Shown here piece by piece: positions 34,257 through 47,179 of a stretch of 64,000 bases of DNA; the first letter of the stretch is position 1, and every line of letters begins with the position of its first letter. Source of the stretch: an uncultured Gammaproteobacteria bacterium. Its GTDB lineage: Bacteria > Patescibacteriota > Microgenomatia > 2-02-FULL-39-11. The notes below the pieces were generated by a model. That model had not been told where the DNA came from. It ran no database searches and worked only from the letters and a program-made list of their open reading frames with translations. A program made the translations under genes and the position numbers. The DNA lies in NCBI GenBank assembly GCA_964544585.1, contig CAZJBV010000001.1:45330-109329 (forward strand). Direction: 5' to 3'.

Positions 34257-34285
34257 TTGTCAAGACAATCTTGAGGCTATATAAT
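34257..34285 (+). promoter_or_regulatory. Putative sigma70-like promoter for tRNA-Glu (TTGTCA-17-TATAAT)
   Basis: ggcTTGTCAagacaatcttgaggctaTATAATacc about 28 nt upstream of tRNA 5' end. Confidence 0.35.
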
Positions 34286-35915
34286 ACCTACTGAGGCTAA
34301 ATAAAAGCTTTTTGCCGCCATCGTCTAGTGGCCCAGGACGGTACCTTCTCAAGGTACAAATCGGGGGTTCGAATCCCCCTGGCGGTACCCAGTTCCGACT
34401 TGTCGGGGCCGCCCGCAGGGCGGCCCAAGGTTCGCGCGCGTTACCGCGCGCTATTTTGTGGTTGAGAGTCAGGTTCGAGCCGAAGATTTTTTGGGCCAAT
34501 ACCTTTTTCTGGTATAAATCATTGCCCCTTGCGATGTTTGCCGCGCTAGCGGCATCTATAACCCATGTCCGCATGGGTTCGAGCCAAGCATTTTGCGTTT
34601 GTTCAAATGTTTTTACTTTCTCTTCCAGCGTCTTCTTGATATTTAACAGTTCAGCTTTTTTAAAGCGGTACGTTTCTATATCAATTTCCTGATCCAAATA
34701 AGCATCTAGAAGACGCTGTAACTTGATATTAATATTTTCAATTTCCATTTTTTTCATTTGAACAAACGCTCGGCAGGATTGGGCAGTGTCTTTTTCTTCC
34801 TCTTTGAGTTTAACTAACATTCTATTTGCCCAATCCTGACGTAAAGAAACTTTTTGAATAAGGCTGGATAGCTGCCTATCCAGGACTTCTTCGCGAATAT
34901 AAAGTTCGCGGCAAGAAATTGTTTTGGATTTTTTGGTACACCTATAATAAGTATGGCCTTTTTGAATTTCAGCTGTAATCATCATGCCGCAACTACTGCA
35001 GCGAAGAAGCCGGGCAAATGGTTTGGGGATTCTTCCCTTGTCTTTGATATGTTGGGGCTTACTCCTGTCTTTCAAAACCATTTGCACTTTATCAAAAAGT
35101 TTCTTGGAAATGATGGGCTCGTGGATTCCCTCGTATAATTCTCCACCAAACCGAAAGAAACCGACATAAAACGGGTCGGAAAGTACATATTTAATTCTGT
35201 CTTTATGAAGAGGCTTGTTACCTCTTGAGAAAATACCATGACGAGCCAAAAAGTCAGATATATCTTCAAGTCTTGATTCATTTTGGGCATAGATACCAAA
35301 TGCAAGGGAAATGTAGGGTGATTTAAATTTATCAACTACAATTTTCTTAGTCCTGACATTATTTAGATACCCGATGGGTGCCAGACTGGGAAATTCTCCT
35401 TTTCTTACTTTTTGGCGAAGTCCTCTTTTGGTATTTTCAGAGAGGGAATCCACATAGTACTTACTTTGCCCAAACGCAATATTGAGCATAAATTTACCCT
35501 GCGGAGTGGATTCAAACCAGAATTGGGGAAATTTGAGAAACTTGATTTTACCAGTATCAACTAGATAAATAATCCTTCCTCCATCTATACTATTGCGCGC
35601 AAGTCTATCCGGATGCCAAGCCAAGATACCGGCGGCTTCACCTTTTTCAATTCTCTCAATCATAGAATTGAAAACAGGACGGCCGGGAATCTTGGCCGAT
35701 TGTTTCTCAATAAGTTCCTCAATAATGGAAATTGACTCACGTTTGGCAAATTCCCTAAGCTCCGTAATCTGTGCCTCGATAGATAATACCTGTTTATCCT
35801 CTGTATCTGTAGACTTGCGCGCATACAAAAATAATTTTTGCAGAGTTGGTAATTGAGATCTTAAATACTCTTTTGGAGGTCTTGTTATGAGATTGTTGGC
35901 AGGAGTGGTAATCAT
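34260..35915 (-). CDS. Large serine recombinase (resolvase/invertase catalytic domain + recombinase domain + zinc ribbon + coiled coil); 3' end as drawn reads through inverted repeat and antisense tRNA
   Basis: YARKSTDTEDKQ...SIEAQ catalytic Ser region, zinc ribbon CSSCGMM...YYRCTKK, long coiled coil; C-terminal ~70 aa are Ala/Arg/Pro/Gly-rich translation of GC-rich IR and tRNA antisense, so true C-terminus uncertain. Confidence 0.75.
   Translation of the reverse strand: MITTPANNLITRPPKEYLRSQLPTLQKLFLYARKSTDTEDKQVLSIEAQITELREFAKRESISIIEELIEKQSAKIPGRPVFNSMIERIEKGEAAGILAWHPDRLARNSIDGGRIIYLVDTGKIKFLKFPQFWFESTPQGKFMLNIAFGQSKYYVDSLSENTKRGLRQKVRKGEFPSLAPIGYLNNVRTKKIVVDKFKSPYISLAFGIYAQNESRLEDISDFLARHGIFSRGNKPLHKDRIKYVLSDPFYVGFFRFGGELYEGIHEPIISKKLFDKVQMVLKDRSKPQHIKDKGRIPKPFARLLRCSSCGMMITAEIQKGHTYYRCTKKSKTISCRELYIREEVLDRQLSSLIQKVSLRQDWANRMLVKLKEEEKDTAQSCRAFVQMKKMEIENINIKLQRLLDAYLDQEIDIETYRFKKAELLNIKKTLEEKVKTFEQTQNAWLEPMRTWVIDAASAANIARGNDLYQKKVLAQKIFGSNLTLNHKIARGNAREPWAALRAAPTSRNWVPPGGFEPPICTLRRYRPGPLDDGGKKLLFSLSRYYIASRLS
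34314..34387 (+). tRNA. tRNA-Glu (anticodon CUC)
   Basis: Cloverleaf readable: acceptor GCCGCCA/UGGCGGU, D-arm TCGTCTAGTGGCCCAGGACG, anticodon stem GTACC/GGTAC with loop TTCTCAA (CTC), T-arm GGGGGTTCGAATCCCCC; CCA not encoded. Confidence 0.85.
34386..34485. repeat. IR1 left copy: ~100-bp GC-rich inverted repeat starting at the tRNA-Glu discriminator base
   Basis: acccagttccgacttgtcggggccgcccgcagggcggcccaaggttcgcgcgcgttaccgcgcgctattttgtggttgagagtca... reverse-complement of 36106..36200; contains internal palindromes GGCCGCCCGCAGGGCGGCC and GCGCGCGTTACCGCGCGC. Confidence 0.9.
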
Positions 35916-36105
35916 GAGCTAAGGAGTACTATACTTTTTCCTTCAAAATTTTCAATATGACTTAATGAATCAAACATAAGCAAAAAATTCTTTTTGTTCG
36001 TTTGCACGTAAAAAATGCTGATGCATTTTTCAGTGTAAAGGCAAAGTTTCCCCCACTATTTAGTGGGGGACAAATAACATCGCAAGGGGCAATTAATTAA
36101 AATTC

Positions 36106-36200
36106 TTCGGCTCATGACTCTCAACCACAAAATAGCGCGCGGTAACGCGCGCGAACCTTGGGCCGCCCTGCGGGCGGCCCCGACAAGTCGGAACTGGGTA
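36106..36200. repeat. IR1 right copy (inverted), abutting IR2
   Basis: Reverse complement matches 34386..34471 perfectly, then 4-5-nt indel, then gagccgaag matches again. Confidence 0.9.
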
Positions 36201-36387
36201 AGCCTTTACAGTTACGCTCGAAACTATTTTATAAATAATTCTTAGTATTATAAATAAAATGTTGCGATGAGGAAAAGGGGTAAAGGGGAAAAGGAATCAT
36301 CGCAACATAAACCTTATTGCTCGGCCGCTTCGCGGCCTCGCATTATCCCAGGCCTCTCCTTCTCATTCTCTCTTTGGGAAATTTTCG
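36199..36387. repeat. IR2 left copy: ~190-bp inverted repeat bounding the cargo module
   Basis: Reverse-complement of 45440..45629 essentially perfect over ~190 bp; internal palindromes (gttgcgatga...tcatcgcaac; GGCCGCTTCGCGGCC). Confidence 0.9.
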
Positions 36388-36569
36388 AAATTTTTTAAAG
36401 CCTTCTTATAGGTCGCTAACGAGAATATTTATTAGAAAAAGGAGAATATTTTGTCAGAAATATCATGAAAATAGCAAAATACTAGCTACCATATAAAACT
36501 GTCAACAAACGCATAGCTTCATAATTATTTTTACTGTCTTTATCTTTCCAAAGTTTTTCGGTCATAAAA

Positions 36570-39500
36570 TCAACTGGCATTATTTTTAAGCCATGTTTGT
36601 TTAAAGTCGTAGTATTTAGGATTTCTCTCCATGAGCCCAGCAAACAATTTTTCTACTTGCTCTTTGTGGGTTTTAATAGAAGTTAAGTATTCGACTGCAA
36701 CATCAAGGTCGTTTGCAATTAACAGATCAGTTGGATAATCAACGAGTTTTTTAAACCAACGTAAAAATTCTTGGTTGCCTTTTACCTGCGCAATTTTTAC
36801 CAATATTTTTCCATTATAGAAGAATGGCCACCAATACATGTCAGGAAGATTATCTTTAGTATAGTTATCTTTAAAATACTGATACTCCGTTTCAATACAT
36901 TTCTTCCAAAGGTCAAAACACACATCAAAATGTTCTTCAATATAATCCTCAACAAAACGATAGATATTCTCAAAAGTCCTGTGGTCGTAGGTTACTGTCA
37001 TATACTCAAGATAATAAGCGGCGAGTTTTACAGCATCTTCAAACTTCGGTGTATCTTTTACCTCATGGGGTATACGTACCATTTGCCAAGCAAAAATTTG
37101 CTTAATTTCTGGATCACCACTTTTTACCAGACTAATCAATAATTTCTTAAAGGGTCTGTCATCAAACTTTCCTAGTGGTTCCCAGTCCTTTGGCCAGTCC
37201 TTGAAAGATTGTATTCTGTATTCAGCAAAAAATATGTATAATGGTGCTGCTTCGCTTAATACATCTGCTAAATATGATTCATGTCCTCTTTGTTTGTCTT
37301 TTTTAGGATACTCATTTTTAAGAAATATTTGTAAAACTTCAAATGCCTTCTTTTGATCTATACTTCTCATGTAAGTAAACACCATCGCCAAATGTTTCAT
37401 AATGGCAGGTAATTCGTGATTAACCAAATCACGTAGCATCAAAAAAGCTAAATCCTCTATTTTCTTAGAAATTTCAACTTGCAGAAATCTCTCTTTTCTA
37501 TTATCTGGAAGCACAGTGTTACGATTTTTTACTAACTCTAAAAGGGGAATACAAGATTGTAATCGTACATAATAATTTTTATCCTTAGTTAGCTTTTCAA
37601 CTAGAGGTAGAATTGCAGGTATATGTTTTCTTCCATAAAGAGTCGCAAATTTTTGTAAAACCCACGCGCAGTAACCTCTGACAGAACCAATTGATAAGTC
37701 ATCTTCACCGCCTATAATTTTTTGATGTCTATTAAAATTACCTTCTGGATCATCAAAGTAATTCTCAAGTATAGGATCGCTATCTTTTATAAAAATATTT
37801 AGTATGTAAAGAGTCTCATCAAACAATTTTACTTCGGCCAGTTTTTCAGCAAACTGTACAATTTGCTCTCTTGAGTGTCGGTTCGTAATTCTTTCTTCAG
37901 TTTTTGATATGTCATCGCCTAGGTTTTGTAAGAACGGGTATACAAAATCTTTATAAACCCCTTGGATTACTTCTTTGTTTTCTTTTGGTAAATCGTTTAT
38001 TGAACTGCAAATTAGAATTTGTTGATTTAATGTAAGAGTTCTTGAAGAGCCCACTTCTTTTAAAATGCTTACTCCAATACCCAGGTTTTTGACTATAATC
38101 TTGGCAAGATTTTTAGCCACCTCCCATGTCTCCCAATCGTCATCCTTCTTAACAAATTCATCGCTTGTGATGTAACTTATAAAAATCTTAACACCCTCAT
38201 CAAAAGTTTCTGGATTATCTAAAAGTTTAGAGATATTACCCATTACATTAAACGAACCTATGGTTTGTCTTTTGTGATATTCGGGATTCGTTATCCAGCT
38301 TGCGATAATAGCAGCTGCTTCTTTGTGCCTTTCTGCCGCCAAATCTGAAGTTATTTGCTCAACAAAAACGTTAGCCGATAAATTATTATATTCATCAAGA
38401 CTGACTTTTATTAGCGCCCACTTTTGCTCTTTTGTATAATCACCTCTCAATTCTTGGAATATTAAGTCTGCTTTCCATGGAATACCTTTTCTCATTCTTA
38501 CGAAGTCGCTTAAAATGTCAAAGGCTTCGGAGCTATGTTTACCACCTTTATATTCTGCAAAAATAACTGGAATTGAAGCACGATTGAGGAAATCTGGCTT
38601 ATTACTAGAAACATCACTTATTTTCCTAGCTATACAATTTTTGATAATAAACTTCCAATTCTTTTCACTATTTTTGTATAGTTCTTGCAAAGCTGGTCTG
38701 ATAATGTATCTTACAAAGTGGTTGTCTAAGATCGAAAAATTACTACCTGATTGAGAAATTCCGCTACCTGCTAAATCCCATCCATCAAACTTCCATTTCA
38801 AGCGAAACCTACCATAAAAATTATTGTAATGCTTCACACAAAGCTCTTTAAACCAAATAATCCTTTCTTCCGGATTTTCTATTACATAATCTCTAAAAAT
38901 CTCGAAAATAGCGGTAGGGGTATAATGCCAGTACTCCCCATGATCTTCTATAAGATTGAAAGTTTTACTTAGGTATTCAATAATTTCTTCTTTAAGTTTT
39001 CTATCTTTTGTATCTTGATATAGTTTTGTTAATAATTTACTAATTTTCTCTCTTTCCCATTTATCGTCTCTATGTCTTGATTTTTTTTCGGTATAGAAAA
39101 AGTCACTGATACTCGGACTAAATAATTTCTTAATCACTTCAAAAACTTTGCGATTAAGCTTAGGATTTACATCTAAAATTTTTTGACACAGTCGTGCAAT
39201 ATCAGTTTTGATAAATTCTTCTCTAAAGAAGTTGTAACTTCCGTCTTCCAGCACTTTATCTGCAAAATCCAGCGAGTATTCTTGATTATCTTTTGTAGGT
39301 AAGTTGTTTTCAAATATTTGAAATAGGTGCACAGAAAATGCGCTCTTAACTGTAGCCTCCCATAGATTATCCCATTGACTTAAATTTAAGTTTTGCTTGT
39401 CTTTGAGTCTCATCAACGCGTAGTAAAATTCCGAAGGGAGATTAGAAAGTTCAGAAATCTTATTGTTAGCCCATTTTTTCTTCTCTGGATTTTCTATAGC

Positions 39501-40178
39501 TTCAATAAGCCCTTTGATGTCTTTTTCGGCAGTTTGTCTCTCTTTTTCATAACCTGCGTCTTCAAGTATTTGAGTTTTTCTTTTATCTAGTTTCTTCAAA
39601 AAAACCTCGGCTGTTAAAGTCTTCCCTGCTGCCGATCCATCGTACACTTCCTGTTTAACAAGATGATCTCTTATTTCCTCCAGTGTATGTTTTGGGACCC
39701 AAACCTGAAGAAGTTTTGCGACTAAAAGCTCTACTATTTTTTCACTCATTTCTTTTGGAACCTCCCAAATTTTTAACTGTGCCAAAAGTTCAAAATGATA
39801 ATCTTTAAAATTGTGTGGTTTTTTGGCGAGCCTCTCTCTTACTCGATCTTGAAAGTATTTATAATTTTCAATATCGTTCTTAGCAGATCTATTTACCCCT
39901 TTGCAAATAATCACTATTTCATCCTGTTTGGTTACTTGGCCGTGCTCGTGAATTTTATCGAGAATATCTCTAATATCTGCGTAGTTTAAAATTGAGTCTT
40001 TTGATTCACAAATTATTTTTCGGCCATCCTCAAAGACCAAATAAAAATCTTCAAGCTTGTCACCTTCAAAACCAATATATCTAAAATCTGAACGTTTAAC
40101 ATATTGAAGAAACAGCGACATAGCTGCCCAAGCTTGGGCATTAACTCCTTTAACGTTATATTGACCCTGCTTACTCAT
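36570..40178 (-). CDS. 1202-aa protein: N-terminal restriction-endonuclease-like (PD-(D/E)xK) domain followed by ~1000 aa of alpha-helical (HEAT/ARM-like) repeats
   Basis: N-terminal LEDFYLVFEDGRKIICESKD (D...ExK); remainder helical repeat composition (e.g. LPLVEKLTKDKNYYVRLQSCIPLLELV); start overlaps stop of upstream 209-aa gene (ATGA). Confidence 0.5.
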   Translation of the reverse strand: MSKQGQYNVKGVNAQAWAAMSLFLQYVKRSDFRYIGFEGDKLEDFYLVFEDGRKIICESKDSILNYADIRDILDKIHEHGQVTKQDEIVIICKGVNRSAKNDIENYKYFQDRVRERLAKKPHNFKDYHFELLAQLKIWEVPKEMSEKIVELLVAKLLQVWVPKHTLEEIRDHLVKQEVYDGSAAGKTLTAEVFLKKLDKRKTQILEDAGYEKERQTAEKDIKGLIEAIENPEKKKWANNKISELSNLPSEFYYALMRLKDKQNLNLSQWDNLWEATVKSAFSVHLFQIFENNLPTKDNQEYSLDFADKVLEDGSYNFFREEFIKTDIARLCQKILDVNPKLNRKVFEVIKKLFSPSISDFFYTEKKSRHRDDKWEREKISKLLTKLYQDTKDRKLKEEIIEYLSKTFNLIEDHGEYWHYTPTAIFEIFRDYVIENPEERIIWFKELCVKHYNNFYGRFRLKWKFDGWDLAGSGISQSGSNFSILDNHFVRYIIRPALQELYKNSEKNWKFIIKNCIARKISDVSSNKPDFLNRASIPVIFAEYKGGKHSSEAFDILSDFVRMRKGIPWKADLIFQELRGDYTKEQKWALIKVSLDEYNNLSANVFVEQITSDLAAERHKEAAAIIASWITNPEYHKRQTIGSFNVMGNISKLLDNPETFDEGVKIFISYITSDEFVKKDDDWETWEVAKNLAKIIVKNLGIGVSILKEVGSSRTLTLNQQILICSSINDLPKENKEVIQGVYKDFVYPFLQNLGDDISKTEERITNRHSREQIVQFAEKLAEVKLFDETLYILNIFIKDSDPILENYFDDPEGNFNRHQKIIGGEDDLSIGSVRGYCAWVLQKFATLYGRKHIPAILPLVEKLTKDKNYYVRLQSCIPLLELVKNRNTVLPDNRKERFLQVEISKKIEDLAFLMLRDLVNHELPAIMKHLAMVFTYMRSIDQKKAFEVLQIFLKNEYPKKDKQRGHESYLADVLSEAAPLYIFFAEYRIQSFKDWPKDWEPLGKFDDRPFKKLLISLVKSGDPEIKQIFAWQMVRIPHEVKDTPKFEDAVKLAAYYLEYMTVTYDHRTFENIYRFVEDYIEEHFDVCFDLWKKCIETEYQYFKDNYTKDNLPDMYWWPFFYNGKILVKIAQVKGNQEFLRWFKKLVDYPTDLLIANDLDVAVEYLTSIKTHKEQVEKLFAGLMERNPKYYDFKQTWLKNNAS

Positions 40179-40180
40179 AA

Positions 40181-40810
40181 CTAGATGACCCCACTTTCTA
40201 CCTCGGAAGATATTGGTAGTGTAATACCGTTTATATTGGTATCTTTATGTGAAATAATTTTTTGACAAAATTCTTCAAAGTTATCGCAAGAGAAAACATA
40301 AGTTTTACCGATCACCGGACTAAAGTCATGTATTAGTGTGCGCACAACTTCACTTAGTTTATTCAGATCAAAAACTCTAAAATTTCTGAATTTTTTATCT
40401 GCAAATACCTCTGAAGCAAGATAATCATTTGCATCTCTGTTAATGTTGCCGTTACAGATAAAGTAGAATTCTTCAATGTATACTTTTAATGAAAAATCTA
40501 TAGGAGAGGAGAGGGGAATATCTAAAGCTTCTTCTATGGCTCCCTTAAATGATCTAATGTCATTGTTTCCGCTTTTTGTTATATCACCAGCTTTTATAAA
40601 AACGCAACAATGTCGAGCTTTTTTGAATAAGTCTTTATAAGAAAAGTATAAATCCTTACCCTTTTCGTTCCGGCCATGCATATCAACAACTGGATGTGCA
40701 CCCATAGCTTTTAATAAAGGGATGAGTATTTTTATCCTAAGATCGTCTTCGAGAAGCTCTCCTAATAGTGTCTGAACATCTTTAACCATCTGTATTTTTT
40801 TCAACCACAT
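40181..40810 (-). CDS. Mrr-cat-like (type IV restriction endonuclease catalytic domain-like) small protein
   Basis: LLKAMGAHPVVDMHGRNEKGKD...CVFIKAG resembles Mrr catalytic core (LLEAMGY...D...QCK); translationally coupled to 1202-aa gene. Confidence 0.4.
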   Translation of the reverse strand: MWLKKIQMVKDVQTLLGELLEDDLRIKILIPLLKAMGAHPVVDMHGRNEKGKDLYFSYKDLFKKARHCCVFIKAGDITKSGNNDIRSFKGAIEEALDIPLSSPIDFSLKVYIEEFYFICNGNINRDANDYLASEVFADKKFRNFRVFDLNKLSEVVRTLIHDFSPVIGKTYVFSCDNFEEFCQKIISHKDTNINGITLPISSEVESGVI

Positions 40811-41047
40811 TGGTTTCTTCCTGCCTAAGGCCGTAGAGTTTATAAACTAACTCATCAATCTGCCGTTCGTGGCCGAGTGCTTGGTGCTTATCTTTTTCCA
40901 AGATGGTTTTCTTCCAGTCAGATGATAGTGCTTATATATAGGCTTGTCAATTGATCTAAAAAGAGGTAAAAGGATTCAGTATGAAATTCTCATGAGGTAT
41001 AATAATCAAATATAGTAAAGAGTTTAGTTTTACTAATATTTATTACA

Positions 41048-42475
41048 ATGATCGAAGCGACATTATCTCGGGGTCCACTACCTGATCAGTTCGGTCAACC
41101 AGAGCGAAGCGTTGCTTCTCCCAAAATAATATTTCTGCATGGATATACTTCATCCCCACAAAAAGATTGGTATCCAACTATTTCCAGGCAATTAACTACC
41201 ATGGGTATTGATCATGACATACCTGAATTACCAGGAGGAGAACACCCAAATCCACAAGAATGGATAGAAGCGATAGATAAAGAAGTAAAGTCTTTGGATG
41301 GTCGACCCTTTGTTCTTGTAGGTCATAGTTTAGGAGCAAGAGCTGCTCTTTTGTATCTTAAAGACAAAAAACCTGCAAATCTTGAAGGGTTATTTCTTGT
41401 ATCACCCCCAGCTAATCGAACAGAGGATTACAATGTAAAAGGTTCCCAGGGATTCGGTGATTTTTTCAAAGAAAAAATTGATATTTCTGAAATTAAGCCG
41501 TTGATAAAAAGAAAACCAGCAGTAATACACTCACCTACTGATCCAGATGTTCGAGTTGAGCAAGCAAGGGAATTAGCTGATGAATTAGGTGCCAGATTTA
41601 TTAGCATTCCCAATCGTGGCCACTTTAATGATGAATTTCATCCAGAAATGGATGCAGAGGAAATTTTAGATGTAGTTTATCATCAATTAAATAGTACACC
41701 ACTTCCTAAAGAATTTGAAGATAAAAATGTTCACTTTGGTATTTGGGGAGTAATTGGAGGTAATAATGATAGAAAATTAGACAGTTTGGAACCATTTAGG
41801 CAAAATATAGAAGCCAAAGGTATAGAAGCACTTAGAAAAATTACTGATGCTATGCCGATACATGATTTAGAGGTGGGGATTTATGATACTACTCGCCATA
41901 TTATCAGAGAAGAAGGAATGGGCGGATTTGCATGGGGTGATCATAATCGAGCTATGATTTTTTTTAATACGGAGTTGCCTGATGATGTGATAAAAAACGC
42001 AATAGAAAAATATATGGTTAGAACAGTGGCACATGAAGTGGATCATATAATGAGGATGAAAGAAGTTGGATTGCCCACCACACTTTTTAAGTCATTTATT
42101 TTAGAAGGACTCGCACAGCATTTTTCGGAAGAAATTGAGCCTGGTGATCATCCTTTGTATGCGGTTGCATTGCAGGATCCTGCACAAATCCATAATTTAC
42201 TTTTGAAGGCTCAACCAGAGTTTGATATAGACCTTACGGAGGAAGACTATAAAGAAAATGGCAGATATGATCAGTGGTTTTTTGGTAGAGGTACGACTGA
42301 AATTCCCAGATGGACTGGGTATACATTAGGGTATCAGATAGTTGGTGAATATTTAAAAGATCATCCTGGTTCTAAACCATCTACTGTTTATAATGTACCA
42401 GATGAAGACTTTCGTCCTTATATTGAAAAGGTTCTGGCAACAACAGAACAAAGTATACAGAAAAATAAAGATTAG
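41048..42475 (+). CDS. Fusion: RBBP9/YdeN-type alpha/beta serine hydrolase + HExxH zinc metallopeptidase-like domain
   Basis: N-terminus IIFLHGYTSSPQKDWYP with GHSLG nucleophile elbow; C-terminus VAHEVDHIMR (HExxH) plus downstream EGLAQHF. Confidence 0.55.
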   Translation: MIEATLSRGPLPDQFGQPERSVASPKIIFLHGYTSSPQKDWYPTISRQLTTMGIDHDIPELPGGEHPNPQEWIEAIDKEVKSLDGRPFVLVGHSLGARAALLYLKDKKPANLEGLFLVSPPANRTEDYNVKGSQGFGDFFKEKIDISEIKPLIKRKPAVIHSPTDPDVRVEQARELADELGARFISIPNRGHFNDEFHPEMDAEEILDVVYHQLNSTPLPKEFEDKNVHFGIWGVIGGNNDRKLDSLEPFRQNIEAKGIEALRKITDAMPIHDLEVGIYDTTRHIIREEGMGGFAWGDHNRAMIFFNTELPDDVIKNAIEKYMVRTVAHEVDHIMRMKEVGLPTTLFKSFILEGLAQHFSEEIEPGDHPLYAVALQDPAQIHNLLLKAQPEFDIDLTEEDYKENGRYDQWFFGRGTTEIPRWTGYTLGYQIVGEYLKDHPGSKPSTVYNVPDEDFRPYIEKVLATTEQSIQKNKD

Positions 42476-42756
42476 TTTTTAAAAAACTGAGAAAATCGCA
42501 ACTTATATAAACTCTCCAAGAAATCTGATCCGGCATAGCCAGCCAATAGAGACATTCTCCAATCTGCGTTGGCAATAAGGCCAGCCATTTGGCCTGTAAT
42601 TATAGAGACAATTATGGTAATTGCAAAATATTTCCACTGAAACTTAAATTTTTCGGGATCGAATTCTTTAGCTTTGGTGATACCGACTACTGCACGGACT
42701 AGACCTCCCATACCTCCCGCCAGAAATTGAAACGCTGTTATTTGAAAATCCATCAA
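42472..42756 (-). CDS. Small 2-TM membrane protein (holin-like, speculative)
   Basis: 94 aa with two hydrophobic helices and charged C-terminus. Confidence 0.3.
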   Translation of the reverse strand: MMDFQITAFQFLAGGMGGLVRAVVGITKAKEFDPEKFKFQWKYFAITIIVSIITGQMAGLIANADWRMSLLAGYAGSDFLESLYKLRFSQFFKN

Positions 42757-42780
42757 TAATCACCTCCTATTTATACTATT

Positions 42781-43227
42781 TTAAGAGATATTTTTACTGT
42801 AAATAATATAATCCTGATGGTCATGATGATTGAAATGTTCTCCGGTTTTTACAAACCCGAGAGATTCATAAAACTTGGATGTTCTTTTAGTTTTTGAAGT
42901 ATTGAGAAATATTTTATGGGCTTTGAGTGATTGAGCTATCTTTATAGCTTCTTTTACAAGTTCGGTTCCAATACCCTGTCTGTGCTTTTCGTGTTTCACG
43001 ATTAGGCTTTCAATTCTGACTACTCCTGCCATGAGAGATAATTCTAAAAAACCTACCATTGTCCCGTTTTCTGTTGCTTTTAGAATCTTTCTTTGCTTTG
43101 TCCAATCTATTTTGGTACCAAACTCCTCCAGGTCTGCCAGTGCCCATTCTTTCTTTTGAAATTCTTCTATCTCTTTGGTGGTTTGATTGATTTCCTGTAT
43201 GGATATCATATGTTTTGTTTTGACCAA
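42781..43227 (-). CDS. GNAT-family N-acetyltransferase
   Basis: Acetyl-CoA binding motif HRQGIGTELV and GNAT fold length (148 aa). Confidence 0.75.
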   Translation of the reverse strand: MVKTKHMISIQEINQTTKEIEEFQKKEWALADLEEFGTKIDWTKQRKILKATENGTMVGFLELSLMAGVVRIESLIVKHEKHRQGIGTELVKEAIKIAQSLKAHKIFLNTSKTKRTSKFYESLGFVKTGEHFNHHDHQDYIIYSKNIS

Positions 43228-43766
43228 ATTCCTAACTTTTTTGATTTTGCTTCTTTTTCTGCAGATAATAATTGTTGCTGATAAATAAGTGGTTTTCTTT
43301 TTTCGTATATTGTAACTTTGGCTAATCCTCTTTTTGCCAACTCAATCGCAAGATTTTTGTCACTAATAATAATGTATGCAAGAATTCTTCCGAATCTGTC
43401 TGATTTATACTCATCGTATTCAATATTTACTTTTTTTCCTTCAACGAGTCTTTTAGCAAATTCTGTAGACTCTTCATCAAAAGGTTGTCCGTGATCCGGA
43501 GTATTTACTCCGACAAGTCGGACGATTTGTCCGTTTTGTAATTCGAGAGTATCCCCATCTATGACTCTTTTGATTTTGGCTTCTTTGGGAAACTCTATGA
43601 CTTGACTGGAGTTTATAATAGGCTGGTTTTCAATCGCATCTTTAATCTCACTTTCATACTTAGTCCCTGCAAAAAATGAGGAGAATGATAAAAGCAGGGC
43701 AAGAGGAATAAGGACATATTTGTTTTTATTTGACTTTTTGTTTTGGGGTTTGGATTTTGGTTTCAT
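43206..43766 (-). CDS. Thermonuclease / staphylococcal nuclease (SNase) homolog, secreted
   Basis: N-terminal signal anchor; SNase core VIDGDTLEL...VRLVGVNTPD...RFGRILAYI. Confidence 0.75.
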   Translation of the reverse strand: MKPKSKPQNKKSNKNKYVLIPLALLLSFSSFFAGTKYESEIKDAIENQPIINSSQVIEFPKEAKIKRVIDGDTLELQNGQIVRLVGVNTPDHGQPFDEESTEFAKRLVEGKKVNIEYDEYKSDRFGRILAYIIISDKNLAIELAKRGLAKVTIYEKRKPLIYQQQLLSAEKEAKSKKLGIWSKQNI

Positions 43767-44853
43767 AAAGTGTATTTTGCCCCACCTCGAATACCCTGTT
43801 GTTTGAGTAATCCCTTCTTTTCCAGTTCAGTCAGATAGTTAGTGGCAGTGCTTTGAGATACTCGACATAATCTTTGCACATCGGTGTTGGTTATGGTTCC
43901 CGTTTCTTTGATAAAGAGCATGATTTTATCTAAGTTTTTCTGTCTTTTGTTGAGTCTTTTTGCGTTGGCTTTCTGGCGAAGAGAGGATATGCCTTCCTTC
44001 GCTGAAGCTTCGGCGGCTAAAGGAGATTGGGGTAATGGGGGAGATGGGGGAATTTGGGGAGTAACCGCAGGAGATGGCTTCGGTGGGACGATGGGTTCTA
44101 TATTTATTTTTGGTTCATCCTGCAGGGACTGGTCTAATTGGGAGGGAGAGGTGTTTCCATGCAAGATATCTCCAAACGAAGATGGCTTGGGAAGAATAGA
44201 AGGAGCAGAAGAAATAGGAGGATTTGATGAAGATGGCGGATTTTCTTTCGCTAGGATCTCGCCGAAAGAGCTTTTGGGAGAGGTGGGAGGCTTAATTTCT
44301 TCTGTTTTTTGAGAATTGCCATTGGCCAATGGAGCGTTCTGGACTGGTTTTGGTGGCTCAGTCTTGATATTGGCCAAGTCGGGAGGAACTTGAAATGTTG
44401 TATTTATAGATGCACTATCTGACGGGCCGGATTGCACTTGAGACGGTGCAATTGGAGTAGTAGTGACAGAAACGGGAGGTGTAGAAATGTCGTTAGGAGA
44501 TGAAGGAGATTGGGGTAATGGGGGAGATATGGGAGAGTCGGAATCGTCCGATGAGGACGGATTGGCCAGATTGGAGGAAGATGTAATCTCGGTGGGTTTC
44601 GGCTCAATCGATGGTGGAGCAACATGGCCAGAATCCGTAGCCGTCTGATTGGTCAAGTCTGGATGAGCCGAACTATTATTGGCCAATGGAGTTTCTACTG
44701 ATTGGCCAGATGTTGATGCTTCCTTGGGAGCCTCATTGGCCATTTTGGTGGAAATTGGCCAAGTGGGATCAGATGTATTGGCCAATTGTGAATCGGCCAG
44801 CTTATCCTGAACTTGGCCAATAATACTTCCTTGCTGGAACTGATCATCAGCCA
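43763..44853 (-). CDS. Pro/Ser-rich low-complexity protein with C-terminal winged-helix DNA-binding domain
   Basis: Likely start MADDQF (44853) rather than ORF-track start; C-terminus ITNTDVQRLCRVSQSTATNYLTELEKKGLLKQQG is wHTH-like; internal ~30-bp direct repeats encode PISPPLPQSP repeats. Confidence 0.45.
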
Positions 44854-44975
44854 TATTAAATCCAGTATACAACAAAGTAAATGGCCAAGTGATTGGCCAA
44901 CACAAAAAGCAACATGGCCATTTTGGTGGAAATTGGCCAAGTGGAAAAAATAATTGGCCAAGTAATAATCGCCAG
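44680..44975. repeat. Dense cluster of ~13 ATTGGCCAA (TGGCCA palindrome) motifs incl. a 28-bp direct repeat
   Basis: TGGCCA occurs about 13 times in ~300 bp spanning the 5' end/upstream region of the wHTH gene; ccattttggtggaaattggccaagtgg repeated at 44738 and 44917. Confidence 0.8.
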
Positions 44976-44999
44976 TGGTCACCCACCCGTGCAATGCTC

Positions 45000-45420
45000 T
45001 CATGATGACACCGATGGAATACAAAGAGGGGTCATCGCACGGGGGGTGAAGGAATTTCTCCCCCGAGTGCCACGGGCACACCGGAAGCACGGGGTAGGGG
45101 GACCCCCGTGAGTGCAAACCCAGAGGACGAAGTCCGACTGGATGCACGAACGGAGGGAGACCCCCCGTGGGAAGTGATTGGAAAATACCTCTGAGGGAAC
45201 CAGGCTCTATAGCACTACGGGCACGGCAGGGGGTACGTGCGAAAAACCTATGACCTGATATAACAGAGAAACTCTCACAGTCTCCAAAAGCGAACCCCAC
45301 TGGCGACATATATAAATGTATATTTGGGAGTACCTTGTTGTTGTCCGCGGATGGGATGGGTGCCCATAAAAAATCGCTGAGGCGATTTTTCAGGGTAAAG
45401 GCCAAGGACAACTACAAATA
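45000..45420. other. GC-rich, hairpin-dense, apparently non-coding ~400-nt region (candidate structured RNA or cis-acting DNA site) ending in a bidirectional terminator-like hairpin
   Basis: Local GC far above window average; many stable stem-loops (GTGCCACGGGCAC; CACGGGG...CCCCGTG; GTGCA...CCAG..GGACGAAGTCC..CTGG..TGCAC); overlapping ORFs have implausible Pro/Gly/Trp/His/Cys-rich composition; aaaatcgctgaggcgatttt hairpin at about 45370-45395. Confidence 0.35.
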
Positions 45421-45439
45421 ATTTCCCCTTACCTTATAA

Positions 45440-45629
45440 CGAAAATTTCCCAAAGAGAGAATGAGAAGGAGAGGCCTGGGATAATGCGAGGCCGCGAAGC
45501 GGCCGAGCAATAAGGTTTATGTTGCGATGATTCCTTTTCCCCTTTACCCCTTTTCCTCATCGCAACATTTTATTTATAATACTAAGAATTATTTATAAAA
45601 TAGTTTCGAGCGTAACTGTAAAGGCTTAC
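45440..45629. repeat. IR2 right copy (inverted)
   Basis: cgaaaatttcccaaagagagaatgagaaggagaggcctggg...tagtttcgagcgtaactgtaaaggcttac is the reverse complement of 36199..36387. Confidence 0.9.
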
Positions 45630-47179
45630 AAAGTCTCTGCGTCTCTTTTAGTTATAACCGTAAATTTATAGGGGCTAGATTTGTTTGAAAAGTAGGCAGT
45701 ATTGGGTAATTGTTCAATATCCTGACCAAAATAGTACTTTAAAATCAAGCGAAAAGTATTTACTGGAGTTATTTCTGGGTATATTAGTTTATCCCCTCCG
45801 AGAGGTAAGTAATAAGCATTGAGGATGGCCATTTTTTGTCTCTTTTCTTCTTCTGTTGCATTTTTCCAATCAAAATTCAGTTCACCTTTTCTGTATGCTT
45901 CCGGGTATGGTCCTTCATCGCCCTGAATAATTATAATGGGTGGATTTTCTTTTGATTTTTCCATGATCGTGTTTACCAATTCCTGTATTTTTTTATTGGC
46001 GAATACTATTTGTTCCTCATAGTTTCTTTTTTCACTTCTTTTATCCGTTTCCTCCTGACTTAAGCAATTTCCATCTTTGTCAAAGACATATGGTTCATGC
46101 GTTAGGAGAAAATGAGCAAATGTAAACGTAGGTTTTGAAATATCAGGCACTTTGGCAATTTCGTCAAACTTGTAGTAAGGTCTTTTGCAGTGAGTGAGCC
46201 GGCTATTAAAAAGCGGGATATTTAGCTTTATTGTAAGTGGATGAAATAATGATTTGCTATACACAATCTCTGAAAACTCAGAGAGCGAAGGCAAATTAAT
46301 ATTTTTATCTGCATTTCTATTCCAGGCCGTTGGACCCCACCATGAGCCGGCATGGATATAGAGATAACCATTTGATTTTAGAAATCTTAAGACAGAATAA
46401 TCCTCAATAAGATCAATAAGGGGTCTAATATCATCTGATTGTCTACCTAAAGATTTTATTAGATCGTCATGATATTCCATATTCAAAGATGAGGATAATG
46501 ATAATTGAGTTTGGGTATAATTTGCCCATGATTTTTGGGGAATAGAAAAATTGCTATCCTGTAGAAACTTTATAAATTGAGAATTGTCAAACTGGTACAC
46601 ATTTTCTAAAATATCGCTTCTTCCATAACGGTCGAATACAAAATAGTAAATATCAGGAGGATTTTTCTGATTTGAGCTGGTCACCTGCCAGGTATATGTT
46701 TTTTCATTCACAGCATAATTCAAAGAATATAATATGTCATATTTTATTATTTCGAAAAGAGATGGAATTAAGAGTGCAATTCCAATAAAGTTAGATATCA
46801 GCATTATCGATATTAGATTGGATTTACTCTTAAGGATTAGGTAGCTTGTTAAGAAAATTATTGCTATTGCAGCAATAAAACCAGGGGTTTGTTTTCCTTG
46901 GAGAAGACTATCTAAAGGTGACTGCCGAAGCAAATCAAAAATATGCCCGTAGCTTAGAATGACTAGTGCTGAGAGGGAAACAATAAGTGATGATTTATAA
47001 ATATTCTTTATAAATATATTCAGAAGAGCAAAGACAAACAAGGTACAGGCCACAATAAAAAATAGAGGCAAAAAAATGCCTGAAATGTGAATTCCTGTAA
47101 TGTTGTGGCTGTAGATAAAAAAGATAGGATAGGAAGAAATAAGAATGGGAAGGAGGATGGGAAATAAATTTTTTCTCAT
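45626..47179 (-). CDS. Membrane-anchored sulfatase/alkaline-phosphatase-superfamily protein (LTA synthase / phosphotransferase-like)
   Basis: N-terminal ~5 TM helices; extracytoplasmic sulfatase-like domain (YYFVFDRYGRSD...); 517 aa. Confidence 0.55.
   Translation of the reverse strand: MRKNLFPILLPILISSYPIFFIYSHNITGIHISGIFLPLFFIVACTLFVFALLNIFIKNIYKSSLIVSLSALVILSYGHIFDLLRQSPLDSLLQGKQTPGFIAAIAIIFLTSYLILKSKSNLISIMLISNFIGIALLIPSLFEIIKYDILYSLNYAVNEKTYTWQVTSSNQKNPPDIYYFVFDRYGRSDILENVYQFDNSQFIKFLQDSNFSIPQKSWANYTQTQLSLSSSLNMEYHDDLIKSLGRQSDDIRPLIDLIEDYSVLRFLKSNGYLYIHAGSWWGPTAWNRNADKNINLPSLSEFSEIVYSKSLFHPLTIKLNIPLFNSRLTHCKRPYYKFDEIAKVPDISKPTFTFAHFLLTHEPYVFDKDGNCLSQEETDKRSEKRNYEEQIVFANKKIQELVNTIMEKSKENPPIIIIQGDEGPYPEAYRKGELNFDWKNATEEEKRQKMAILNAYYLPLGGDKLIYPEITPVNTFRLILKYYFGQDIEQLPNTAYFSNKSSPYKFTVITKRDAETL

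Follow-up and report, generated by a model that had tools for sequence, protein, structure and literature searches.

Long perfect inverted repeats beside a tRNA-Glu gene as probable attachment-site arms of a large serine recombinase island

Genes and repeats at the tRNA-Glu(CTC) locus

Screening the window, i.e. the whole 64-kb stretch of DNA analysed here, for inverted repeats of at least 40 nt, we recovered two, which adjoin each other next to a tRNA-Glu(CTC) gene and a gene encoding a large serine recombinase (LSR). The longer repeat (Z'/Z) pairs positions 36198-36387 with 45440-45629 as exact reverse complements (190/190, 0 mismatches), reaches 195 nt when 2 mismatches (36196, 36197) are admitted and encloses 9,052 nt. 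A near-perfect repeat around a 9-kb interval, far longer than the terminal repeats of IS elements or hix/gix sites, had been described at this position by a first-pass annotation, and our measurements agree with it on each of these points. The shorter repeat (Y/Y', 34386-34471 versus 36115-36200, 86/86) flanks the LSR gene, starts at the tRNA 3' end by its outer edge, abuts the 190-bp repeat with an overlap of 3 nt (GTA, 36198-36200) and extends imperfectly to 34538 and 36076; this second repeat, the LSR gene and the tRNA-Glu gene had escaped the first-pass annotation. A 26-nt arm end occurred exactly twice, versus 0.00 times expected from 100 shuffles. The features of the locus, named according to the interpretation developed below, are as follows:

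34260-35915, minus strand: LSR gene, a 551-aa ORF with the Pfam domains Resolvase, Recombinase and Zn_ribbon_recom
34314-34387, plus strand: tRNA-Glu(CTC) gene (Rfam tRNA, 61.5 bits; ARAGORN, 34313-34391)
X, T-arm and 3' end of this tRNA: putative left (B-type) half of the target
34386-34388, plus strand: putative attL core TAC, tRNA positions 72-74 (...CTGGCGG TAC CCAGTTCC...)
34386-34471, plus strand: Y arm at the putative attL, with a GC hairpin as well as a terminator-like hairpin ahead of a T-run
36115-36200, plus strand: Y' arm, inverted copy of Y upstream of the LSR gene (86/86)
36172-36226, minus strand: putative internal inverted attP, reading Z-TAC-Y on the minus strand (plus-strand core GTA, 36198-36200)
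36198-36387, plus strand: Z' arm, the left 190-bp arm (190/190 with the right arm)
36388-45439: cargo M2, between Z' and Z, delineated from ORFs and Pfam
45440-45629, plus strand: Z arm at the putative attR, right end of the island (190/190 with Z')
45627-45629, plus strand: putative attR core TAC at the junction of Z with W (...AAAGGCT TAC AAAGTCTCTG...)
45626-47179, minus strand: host gene for a 517-aa sulfatase-like protein, whose 3' end is W, the putative right (B'-type) half of the target

Both repeats carry internal structures. The minus strand of the Y arm codes for the non-conserved tail of the recombinase ORF, the Y' copy carries the terminator-like site, and arm pairs homologous to Y/Y' were found in the related loci L001, L003, L004, L005 and L008. 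From the core inward, Z' comprises a P-type half-site with a mimic of the tRNA T-arm (TTTCGAGC), followed by an AT-rich stretch, by a conserved hairpin whose loop is rich in purines, and by a GC hairpin. The two internal hairpins previously reported in each copy (gttgcgatga...tcatcgcaac and GGCCGCTTCGCGGCC) were both detected in the 190-bp arm, and the stem of the first is preserved in relatives through compensatory changes (ATGTAGCAA/TTGCTACAT in L003, GCTTGCAA/TTGCAAGC in L004 and L019, GCGGCG/CGCCGC in L107 and L112). Homology of Z' to L001 covers its first ~134 nt (79% identity) and that to L003 and L004 its first ~100 nt (69-72%). An Rfam scan of 30-50 kb (E < 0.1) returned nothing besides the tRNA. 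The minus strand of Z' also holds a promoter-like TTTATA-17-TAAAAT directed to the core. An A-rich block (often TAAAAT) located 2-3 nt upstream of GTTCGAGC is conserved, the key first T missing in many members; a conserved core-directed promoter in Z is hence doubtful, and the block may belong to the binding site of the recombinase instead.

The 551-aa ORF matched three Pfam families of LSRs, all above cut-offs (PF00239, 2.9e-22; PF07508, 1.2e-10; PF13408, 1.4e-07), and its alignment shows an invariant YARKSTD block, in which the serine nucleophile would lie. Conservation stops at FGSNL (~34470), beyond which the ORF tail crosses Y and the tRNA in antisense. Homologues at E <= 1e-20 numbered 7,888 among the candidates scored, with 60-76% identity among the matches listed and, where the sources name an organism, an origin mostly in the candidate phyla radiation (CPR). 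An exact-match query with the LSR protein as translated from the window gave no hit, although the LSR sequence is identical to P0001 in the homologue collection. Its best NCBIfam match was CcrB (E = 2e-30, 105.8 bits versus a cut-off of 900) and its best full-length PDB match the SPbeta integrase YokA, the resolvase-domain-only entries 3guv and 3g13 scoring slightly better. Viral contigs (IMG/VR) contained only 5 LSR relatives, arguing against a phage-borne family, and no candidate directionality factor was identified. Within a single 90%-identity cluster, near-identical LSRs displayed at least 9 different antisense-tRNA ORF tails, suggesting a mobile family in which a near-identical enzyme resides at at least 9 different tRNA genes.

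The cargo M2 encodes proteins of 1202 aa and 209 aa (both with no assigned function), a 475-aa Ser_hydrolase and DUF2268 protein, a 94-aa holin-like protein, a GNAT acetyltransferase, an SNase nuclease and a 407-aa Pro/Ser-rich protein with a winged helix, together with a GC-rich structured leader. With PADLOC and NCBIfam, the large cargo proteins could not be placed convincingly in any defence system or protein family, and all-against-all BLAST of the loci revealed no cargo gene conserved across them, so that the repeat does not appear tied to a particular cargo function. Pfam detected no transposase domain in the cargo proteins, and no target-site duplication was found: nothing but the 3-nt core, in inverted sense, is common to the two flanks, which are Y' and the host gene. 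Terminal repeats of an IS element or composite transposon were ruled out on these two grounds.

Insertion at the tRNA gene and related loci in CPR genomes

In the relatives L096 and L097, the gene order is sortase, histidine kinase, response regulator, sulfatase-like gene, 12 nt, tRNA-Glu(ctc) and GreA, with a 61%-identical homologue of the 517-aa protein ending 12 nt from the tRNA and no recombinase or cargo between the two. The C-termini of the host proteins end at the same residue position (PYKFTVITKRDAETL versus PYNFTVITERDSQEF in the relative, each followed by the stop codon); for the 517-aa gene, it is the island that contributes this codon (minus strand, 45626-45628). Given the direct adjacency of GreA, tRNA-Glu and the homologue of the 517-aa protein in the relative, the segment 34389-45626 (11.2 kb) is an insertion. 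A junction of X and W left by excision would read TTCGAATCCCCCTGGCGGTAC-AAAGTCTCTGCG. One point counts against the attachment-site explanation given below: in the reconstructed ancestral target X+TAC+W, the 517-aa ORF would extend into the tRNA by 15 codons, but in the relative the two are separated by 12 nt. JGI metagenome contigs gave 0 matches to the empty-site junction X+TAC+W, and 0 to the Z hairpin.

Aligning the three junctions of the island, X-TAC-Y (site 1), Z-TAC-Y (site 2, in reverse complement) and Z-TAC-W (site 3), left the TAC core as the sole sequence common to all of them, site 2 sharing an identical left half with site 3 and an identical right half with site 1. The halves thus appear swapped as in attP x attB giving attL and attR: the tRNA joined to Y would represent attL, Z joined to the 517-aa gene attR, and Y' joined to Z' an intact, inverted, internal attP. 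A half-site exchange at a shared short core was also found in 16 other loci. According to published structures (PMC11722253), DBD2 is positioned 4-5 bp farther from the centre on attP half-sites than on those of attB. Measured from the identity boundary, GTTCGA begins at 19 nt in the tRNA half (27/41 loci) and at 23 nt in Z (31/45 loci). The Z end mimics the tRNA T-arm 4 bp farther from the core, which is the spacing that distinguishes P-type from B-type half-sites; GTTCGA may be the motif bound by the zinc-ribbon domain. Judged by this motif spacing, both halves of the internal attP are P-type, and in family members the site displays an imperfect dyad symmetry over ~50 bp (e.g. L073).

Surveying 80 CPR genome loci, we found an LSR-flanking Y pair in 65 and an abutting tRNA 3' end in 52, the latter covering at least 14 amino-acid types. 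Where over 3 kb of upstream DNA was available (32 loci), the Z pair was present in 21, with arms of 146-405 nt and 81-100% identity. Arm identity across the family is mostly >=99% with a decaying tail, and arm length follows lineage (~300 nt in L025, L034 and L045; ~150-185 nt in the Saccharibacteria group). In addition, 20 contigs begin no more than 141 nt beyond the core, which matches the k-1 breaks that a repeated Z should cause. The LSR-proximal Y arm is adjoined by a Z motif in almost every locus, the exceptions showing a real tRNA or being off register, and the core is non-palindromic in most loci (CAC, CTC). The locus L075 shows a chain of repeat-bounded segments, one of which lacks an LSR and carries a Y-Y' hairpin of 35 nt. 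Two observations count against the explanation given below: the left half-site is not a tRNA in ~7 of 52 loci, and the exact position of the crossover dinucleotide is inconsistent within the family (within 72-74 in the window, within 74-76 in L112).

Four contigs from 4 samples (L107-L110) carry Z-Y-LSR-Y'-Z' without a tRNA; since their arms differ at 9 positions located 40-80 nt from the core, single 141-mers join the LSR 3' end to Z'. Contigs L112-L114 (3 samples) are 98.3-98.8% identical to them but read Y'-tRNA-Arg(ccg), L107 and L112 corresponding to attP and attL of one element. A second free-form case (L111) belongs to a different LSR cluster. In the free forms, Z lies on both sides of the LSR, within a continuous Z+Y repeat of 173-187 nt. 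From these contigs, one element was apparently recovered both in a free form, with two inverted attP, and in a form integrated at tRNA-Arg; the free-form contigs are short and could instead be LSR modules between two cargo segments of an array.

The block 94 aa-SNase-407 aa-leader-Z is common to the window and L001, in opposite orientation relative to the recombinase, and the cargo is likewise inverted between L034 and L025. Such differences between relatives imply that inversion occurs, with the reservation that opposite orientations were seen between species only and that 190-nt perfect arms exceed the resolution of short-read assembly. More generally, the orientation of segments lying between perfect arms longer than the assembler k-mer is unreliable, and the co-orientation of cargo genes with the flanking chromosome, analysed in 22 loci under this same restriction, showed no consistent correlation. 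Using the 1202-aa and a 363-aa cargo protein as probes for the alternative isomer, we recovered only the same arrangement or repeat-broken contigs.

Origin of the two abutting inverted repeats

We propose that the 190-bp arms are two copies of the P-arm (Z) of the attachment site of an LSR island, one located at attR and the other in an internal attP, and that the free form of this island has two attP (probability of about 0.8). The free element would contain two attP regions (Z-core-Y), which flank the LSR gene on both sides in inverted orientation. The attP lying 3' of the LSR gene would recombine with the target X-W at the 3' end of tRNA-Glu(CTC), and would thereby be split into attL (tRNA-Y, 34386) and attR (Z-host gene, 45629), the attP lying 5' of the gene remaining whole in the island as Y'-Z' (36115-36387). 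The integrated island, i.e. the 11.2-kb insertion plus a 3-nt core on each side, would then display two abutting inverted repeats, Y/Y' around the LSR gene and Z'/Z around the cargo. Among the components of this explanation, the insertion, the half-site swap at a 3-nt core, the P-type T-arm mimic, the family-wide layout and the existence of free and integrated forms are documented in the present study. Some cargo segments of Saccharibacteria include housekeeping-type genes (alanine racemase, ProRS, GuaA), which we counted against the island reading.

This explanation modifies the first-pass annotation in several respects. The interval that the repeat was said to bound is correct, but the arms do not form a free-standing pair; they would be P-arm copies of the LSR attachment site, and are neither transposon ends nor invertase sites. 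The recent duplication put forward to explain their identity becomes superfluous, as the duplicate belongs to the element itself and occurs both in the free form (L107-L111) and family-wide. Homologous recombination and gene conversion between the arms, already envisaged as RecA-type events, would be the most likely reason for their maintained identity; such recombination could also flip the cargo, in line with its inverted state in the window versus L001 and in L034 versus L025.

The retained attP may act as the upstream control region of the LSR gene, as a standing landing or exchange site, or as both. Canonical LSRs recombine attP neither with attR nor with another attP (PMC11722253); they do not recombine attP with attL either. 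A broader proposal, which we put forward tentatively and consider possible rather than probable, is that the two-attP design constitutes a functional device of a very large CPR element family, in which a T-arm-reading LSR would land in almost any tRNA gene and the spare attP, together with the identical arms, would allow isomerisation and the swap or capture of cargo, possibly also serving as LSR operator. Such a device may be likened to a natural recombinase-mediated cassette exchange or landing pad.

Inverted arms with a shared core at their outer edges are also found in the C segment of phage P1, and the locus could accordingly be read as a dedicated invertible-segment switch (shufflon, Gin/Cin-like), in which the LSR, by site-specific recombination at the arm ends, would invert the 9-kb segment as well as the gene encoding it and so vary expression. 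A serine recombinase gene adjoining the segment, a cargo orientation that varies between relatives, and the arms of L025, of which only the terminal 23 nt are still identical, suggesting selection on the site itself, are all consistent with a switch. We nevertheless hold it to be unlikely: compared with L096, the entire region is inserted, the enzyme is an LSR of 551 aa and no ~190-aa invertase, the cargo content is unrelated between loci and the same LSR is found at many different tRNA genes. Furthermore, the same Z arm faces the cargo at both ends, a symmetrical layout in which flipping alters no promoter-gene relationship, and the pairs attP x attR and attP x attP are those not recombined by canonical LSRs (PMC11722253).

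The fact that each segment has its own bounding inverted repeat, as well as the chain of segments with an LSR-less unit in L075, would also fit two independent units with terminal inverted repeats, an autonomous Y-LSR-Y' and a non-autonomous Z'-cargo-Z, moving via palindromic-joint circles and inserted serially at the tRNA. Such a history is very unlikely in view of the Z motif standing beside the LSR-proximal Y arm in almost every locus, of the free form, where Z and Y make one continuous repeat on both sides of the LSR, and of the inverted ends themselves, which cannot recombine to excise where the core is non-palindromic, as in most loci. Moreover, no solo Y-LSR-Y' was seen between a tRNA and host DNA.

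A one-off and recent inverted duplication (replicative inversion or template switching), unrelated to the recombinase, would account for the perfect identity of the arms. The closest relative with the same cargo block, L001, lends it two arguments, having one Z within 10 kb and a homology that crosses the inner edge of one arm only, continuing past that of the right arm (45440-45629; ttataaggtaagggg...) and not past that of the left. Against these stand the recurrence of the two-repeat layout, with arm ends exactly at the core, in 21 or more further loci belonging to many phyla, the arm length as a property of lineage and the duplicate already present in the free forms, which together render a one-off event highly improbable.

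Finally, the window derives from a metagenome assembly, and in a second deposited assembly of the same population (L010, GCA_016186845.1) the arms were mishandled, 61 and 65 bp being lost at their edges and overlaps of 141 nt being left. Where perfect arms exceed k, the segment orientation is arbitrary, and reads of less than 190 nt do not establish which way the 9-kb segment faces between its flanks. The Logan contigs, assembled independently from 4 sequencing runs, end exactly 30 nt (k-1) into the repeat at its inner edge (36387) and at its outer edge (45629), the pattern that a de Bruijn graph yields for a genuine two-copy repeat, and the joining of both cargo ends to the same repeat side requires two inverted copies. 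The 190-bp repeat is no artefact of a single assembly. With the same architecture in dozens of unrelated assemblies, some with diverged and unambiguously assembled arms, a chimeric join or collapsed repeat is scarcely credible. A single-stranded folded att site (as in integron attC or CTX phage-like systems) was rejected, because the sites of serine recombinases are duplexes and all four strands are cut.

The two-attP island explanation exposes an abundant element family, mostly from CPR where an organism is named, bacteria whose mobile DNA has been little charted and for which hardly any genetic tools exist. Should it hold, these loci would provide sequence-defined attP/attB pairs for LSRs targeting the conserved T-arm and 3' end of tRNA genes, of practical interest for integrase-based engineering, and would reveal a systematic cause of contig breaks and arbitrary segment orientation beside tRNA genes in CPR MAGs. 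It would also raise a question for serine-integrase biology, namely the retention of a second inverted attP that is inert by canonical rules.

Comparison with known recombinase systems

The repeat is ordinary in kind, its arms being att arms, and the architecture of the element is apparently undescribed, no description of an island with a spare inverted attP having been found in the literature searched.

Long inverted repeats that bound isomerising segments are known from herpes simplex virus and plastid genomes, and the yeast 2-micron plasmid carries Flp/FRT within 599-bp inverted repeats. As in the 2-micron plasmid, two unique segments are parted here by long inverted repeats, each with a recombinase target, the recombinase gene lies beside a repeat, and isomers differing in segment orientation are expected, as in the three systems. 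Unlike the plasmid, the island has a serine and not a tyrosine recombinase, is chromosomally integrated and has no recognised replication gene; no circular junction was obtained for this species, and nothing points to a role in amplification.

The P1 C/Cin, Mu G/Gin and Hin systems likewise comprise a segment bounded by inverted repeats, with crossover sites at its outer ends and a serine-family recombinase beside or inside it. They rely, however, on small invertases, a Fis-dependent enhancer, 26-bp sites and tail-fibre or flagellin cargo, in contrast to the LSR, the arbitrary cargo and the insertion at a tRNA gene observed here. Membership of the serine invertases (Hin, Gin, Cin, Pin; ~190 aa with a C-terminal helix-turn-helix) was discarded for the 551-aa ORF on account of its LSR domains.

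Similarity to SCC elements (CcrAB/CcrC) is indicated by the best NCBIfam match of the LSR, by small variable cassettes at the 3' end of a conserved gene and by tandem arrays with recombinase-less derivatives (here L075). In contrast to SCC, the island has a single recombinase gene, its internal site is inverted where SCC arrays have direct repeats, and, with a score below the CcrB threshold and a tRNA target instead of rlmH, it was not assigned to SCC.

Small cargo islands at tRNA 3' ends, with several tRNA targets and arrays, also characterize tRNA-targeting genomic islands and the tycheposons of Prochlorococcus. A minority of tycheposons use an LSR (10.1101/2020.12.28.424599). Most of these elements use tyrosine integrases and leave direct repeats of the 3' part of the tRNA; the text consulted describes no internal inverted attP or double inverted repeat for them.

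Close parallels also exist with LSR elements and prophages such as those of phiC31, Bxb1, A118/LI and SPbeta, with which the island shares an enzyme made of resolvase, recombinase and zinc-ribbon domains with a coiled-coil-like stretch, a conservative integration without long direct repeats, a half-site swap at a very short core and an outer motif ~4 bp farther out in P-type than in B-type half-sites. Unlike them, its family has weak sequence similarity to characterised LSRs and is almost absent from viral contigs, its att arms are conserved over 80-400 nt instead of ~25 nt, and one enzyme targets the T-arm and 3' end of many tRNA genes. In addition, the island keeps a second complete attP, inverted, 5' of the recombinase gene, from which the two abutting long inverted repeats of its integrated copies follow.

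Inverted repeats and att junctions of the island

The first-pass annotation had reported 190-bp inverted repeats bounding a 9-kb cargo, and this pair was recovered in full: 36198-36387 and 45440-45629 are perfect reverse complements of one another (190/190 positions), extendable in the repeat search to 195 nt with two mismatches (36196 and 36197), the arms being spaced by 9,052 nt and containing both hairpins described in them. That account had overlooked a second perfect inverted repeat (34386-34471 / 36115-36200), and these two are the only inverted repeats of at least 40 nt in the whole 64-kb window. The arm-end 26-mer of the 190-nt repeat occurs exactly twice, against 0.00 occurrences expected by chance. 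The features and junctions of the island are as follows, Y and Z denoting the 86-nt and 190-nt arms, Y' and Z' their inverted copies, X the tRNA-Glu end and W the 3' end of a sulfatase-like 517-aa gene.

Features and att junctions of the island (window coordinates; a slash separates half-sites)
34386-34471 and 36115-36200, inverted: Y and Y' arms, 86/86 positions matching
34260-35915, minus strand: ORF of the large serine recombinase (LSR), 551 aa, with resolvase, recombinase and zinc-ribbon domains, between the Y arms
34314-34387, plus strand: tRNA-Glu(CTC); the outer Y arm starts at tRNA position 72
36198-36200: GTA, three-base overlap of Y' with Z', where the second repeat adjoins the left 190-nt arm
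Junction X/Y: ...CTGGCGG TAC CCAGTTCC...
Junction Z/Y, minus strand at 36198: ...AAAGGCT TAC CCAGTTCC...
Junction Z/W: ...AAAGGCT TAC AAAGTCTC...

The locus thus reads X/Y - LSR - Y'/Z' - cargo - Z/W. TAC is the sole sequence common to the three junctions, around which the halves are exchanged, and their relation is that of attP + attB = attL + attR. The peculiarity of the element is that an intact attP persists within the island, in inverted orientation. The crossover dinucleotide would lie somewhere within tRNA positions 72-74 in the window and within 74-76 in the related locus L112. On a broader scale, the minus strand holds 51 of the 54 ORFs of at least 150 aa (window 1-64000), a bias shared by the cargo genes and the recombinase as assembled, the tRNA-Glu gene lying on the plus strand.

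The 190-nt repeat is independent of any single assembly. Logan contigs from four sequencing runs terminate exactly 30 nt (k-1) inside it, at its inner edge (L011) or its outer edge (L012-L014), and since the 9-kb segment is connected at either end to one and the same side of the repeat, two inverted copies are required; reads shorter than the 190-nt arm cannot determine the orientation of this segment. The same population is represented by another public assembly (L010; GCA_016186845.1, JACPKX010000015.1), which handles the arms incorrectly: it is 100% identical except at the repeat edges, where it lacks 61 bp and 65 bp relative to window 36340-36400 and 45581-45645, and it shows 141-nt overlaps resembling artefacts of merging at k=141. 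No recombinase gene figures among those recorded for this stretch.

Integration site, half-site types and the un-integrated form

The source name of P0121 makes the organism of the window a Candidatus Gottesmanbacteria. A relative (L096 and L097), in which the homologue of the 517-aa gene is 61% identical, displays the order sortase, histidine kinase, response regulator, sulfatase-like gene, 12 nt, tRNA-Glu(ctc) and GreA, with recombinase and cargo absent from the interval between the sulfatase-like gene and the tRNA. The 517-aa protein of the window and the homologue of the relative terminate at an identical residue position (PYKFTVITKRDAETL and PYNFTVITERDSQEF, each followed by a stop), the stop codon of the 517-aa gene (45626-45628) coming from the island. 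Together, this empty site and the matching protein ends identify window 34389-45626 as an 11.2-kb insertion between the tRNA and the 517-aa gene. One discrepancy concerns the reconstructed target X+TAC+W, which is devoid of the 12-nt spacer and in which the ORF would continue into the tRNA.

The final ~30 nt of Z mimic the T-arm and acceptor end of a tRNA (GGTTCGAGC-N14-CACCA vs GGTTCGAnTCC-N12-CACCA in real tRNAs). The half-site distance, counted from the first base of GTTCGA up to where the attL and attP sequences coincide, is 19 nt for the tRNA half in 27/41 loci and 23 nt for Z in 31/45 loci. In serine integrases, the second DNA-binding domain lies 4-5 bp nearer the centre on attB than on attP half-sites, according to cryo-EM and earlier work (PMC11722253); applied to our spacing difference, this rule designates X as B-type and Z as P-type, making Y'/Z' a complete attP. 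Imperfect dyad symmetry is visible in attP of this type, e.g. in L073. Since attP x attP synapses form without recombining (PMC11722253), the internal attP should be inert towards attL, attR and other attP under canonical rules. The Z hairpin (window 36261-36306; L112 1296-1342) carries a conserved purine-rich loop, GGAAAAGGGGTAAAGGGGAAAAGGAA, on stems that vary through compensatory changes, and in the L107/L112 group this loop faces the att core in the opposite orientation to that in the window, L001, L004 and L019.

The LSR ORF has no stop codon ahead of Y, so that its C-terminal tail reveals the sequence beyond the core. Near-identical LSRs bear at least nine different antisense-tRNA tails (...G[FI]EP...) within single 90%-identity clusters, a diversity which puts one and the same enzyme at a wide range of tRNA genes. 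Other tails enter Z' instead (...LLVQLYNSARIYFIKNS, then a stop), the hypothetical equivalent for the window LSR being ...SLYSYARNYFINNS, then a stop. Contigs with such tails (L107-L110, recovered in four samples, and L111, of a different cluster) read Z/Y - LSR - Y'/Z' without tRNA, and nine differences between the arms of L107, 40-80 nt from the core, mean that single 141-mers physically join the LSR 3' end to Z'. Contigs L112-L114 (three samples) match L107 and L108 at 98.3-98.8% identity across the upstream DUF3800 cargo gene, Z/Y and the LSR, and differ downstream of the LSR, where they read Y'/tRNA-Arg(ccg). This comparison indicates that the un-integrated element holds a pair of inverted attP copies, one on either side of the LSR gene, of which the 3' copy serves in integration and the 5' copy persists; the left 190-nt arm belongs to the persisting attP, and the right arm is the Z half of the used copy.

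The annotated LSR ORF crosses the att arm and the antisense tRNA strand in essentially all members (P0001-P0120 and the 90%-identity clusters), and deposited LSR lengths and C-termini are thus context-dependent and partly artefactual; the antisense-tRNA tails, of ...G[FIV]EP... form, can be used to read integration state and target tRNA.

The retained attP may constitute an upstream control region belonging to the LSR gene itself, towards which both a Y' terminator-like hairpin and a weak, possibly promoter-like element in Z' point. It may also represent a standing landing site, or half of a cassette-exchange device.

Distribution, arm evolution and derivatives of the family

Homology searches retrieved 7,888 LSR homologues at E<=1e-20, with 60-76% identity among the matches listed; the few with a named source are mostly bacteria of the candidate phyla radiation (CPR), and only 5 relatives were found among 2.9 million viral contigs. 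The closest loci among the matches listed (L001, L003, L004-L009) all have an inverted repeat of 78-89 nt that surrounds the LSR gene and is abutted on one arm by a tRNA-Glu 3' end. Across 80 surveyed loci (one genome per species), the Y pair is present in 65 and an abutting tRNA 3' end in 52, covering at least 14 amino-acid types. Z pairs (146-405 nt, 81-100% identity, enclosing 1.2-8.5 kb) occur in 21 of the 32 loci having more than 3 kb of upstream sequence, and 20 surveyed contigs start at most 141 nt outside the core, which is the mark left by a k-1 break where Z is repeated. The three-way half-site swap was observed in 17 junction-aligned loci (the window and 16 others), with a shared core, CAC, CTC or CACCA, corresponding to tRNA positions 72-76. 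Cargo is unrelated from locus to locus, ranging from defence-like genes (L003) to one-gene cargoes, alanine racemase, ProRS and GuaA among them.

Homologues P0004, P0006, P0009, P0011, P0045 and P0117 reach 865-932 aa, about twice the usual length, one bearing an additional PF07697 domain; they may have arisen by fusion or by read-through of neighbouring modules. Contigs with CPR-type recombinase and tRNA modules are often deposited as 'uncultured Gammaproteobacteria' MAGs (L017, L019, L030, L037 and others), suggesting mislabelled bins or mis-binned contigs.

Arm identities in the family are concentrated at 99-100%, tailing off to 81%, and in L025 identity is limited to the terminal 23 nt of each arm. 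Arms within a genome are closer to each other than orthologous arms of close strains (e.g. L082 vs L079, 95% identity), a pattern of concerted evolution from which arms occasionally escape, and which homologous recombination and gene conversion between neighbouring repeats would be expected to produce. In L001, the block 94aa-SNase-407aa-leader-Z is contiguous with Y-LSR, whereas it lies at the far end from the LSR in the window, the segment being therefore inverted; cargo is also inverted between L034 and L025, whose arms diverged enough for unambiguous assembly. Inversion between arms thus occurs over evolutionary time. Since the cargo meets an identical Z arm at either end, flipping alters no local promoter-gene arrangement, which argues against a phase-variation role.

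Within the cargo, an apparently non-coding, GC-rich leader (44960-45445, minus strand; ~0.5 vs ~0.36 background) lies between the Z arm and the 407-aa gene. Its predicted folding is much stronger than that of shuffled controls (MFE -190.9 vs -150.0 +/- 5.5 kcal/mol, z = -7.4); the leader has no Rfam match at E<0.1 and is conserved with L001 at its ends only. Several copies of a palindromic TTGGCCA(A/T) motif, also conserved in L001, lie at and just upstream of the start of this winged-helix gene, include an exact 30-nt direct repeat (44737-44766 and 44915-44944), and may form an operator array for the 407-aa regulator. A 9-nt periodic GGGGA/GGGGT-rich repeat within the 407-aa ORF (44020-44069 and 44494-44536) corresponds to its Pro/Ser-rich low-complexity region on the coding strand.

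Some loci have a non-tRNA left half-site. Others are tandem or multiple arrangements: L075 (5250-9713) is a chain of three inverted-repeat-bounded segments, one of them an LSR-less unit of which a 35-nt Y-Y' hairpin (7019-7055) is left, Z is present three times in L024, and L084 and L090 carry two LSR modules at neighbouring tRNA genes. In L092 (41-1992), the LSR module is flanked by two convergent tRNA genes (Tyr and Leu), and among strains L079, L082 and L087 a neighbouring tRNA-Gly is adjacent, moved or inverted, the breakpoint being its 3' end; such configurations hint that the recombinase mediates chromosomal rearrangements from one tRNA gene to another. The arrays of L075 type, L092 and the loci with non-tRNA half-sites show that rearranged and degenerate derivatives exist.

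Comparison with known integrative elements

By its domain set, its insertion, the half-site swap and the P/B spacing, the island is an LSR integrative element, distinct from invertase systems, IS elements and SCC elements. The 190-nt repeat is itself ordinary, being made of att arms, and any novelty would lie in the architecture of the element; our full-text literature search returned no description of the two-repeat, internal-attP layout, which is not proof of novelty. Compared with described LSR elements, the island retains a second, inverted attP and has long and conserved att arms, and its family, confined to CPR-type genomes, has as its targets the T-arm and 3' end of a wide variety of tRNA genes.
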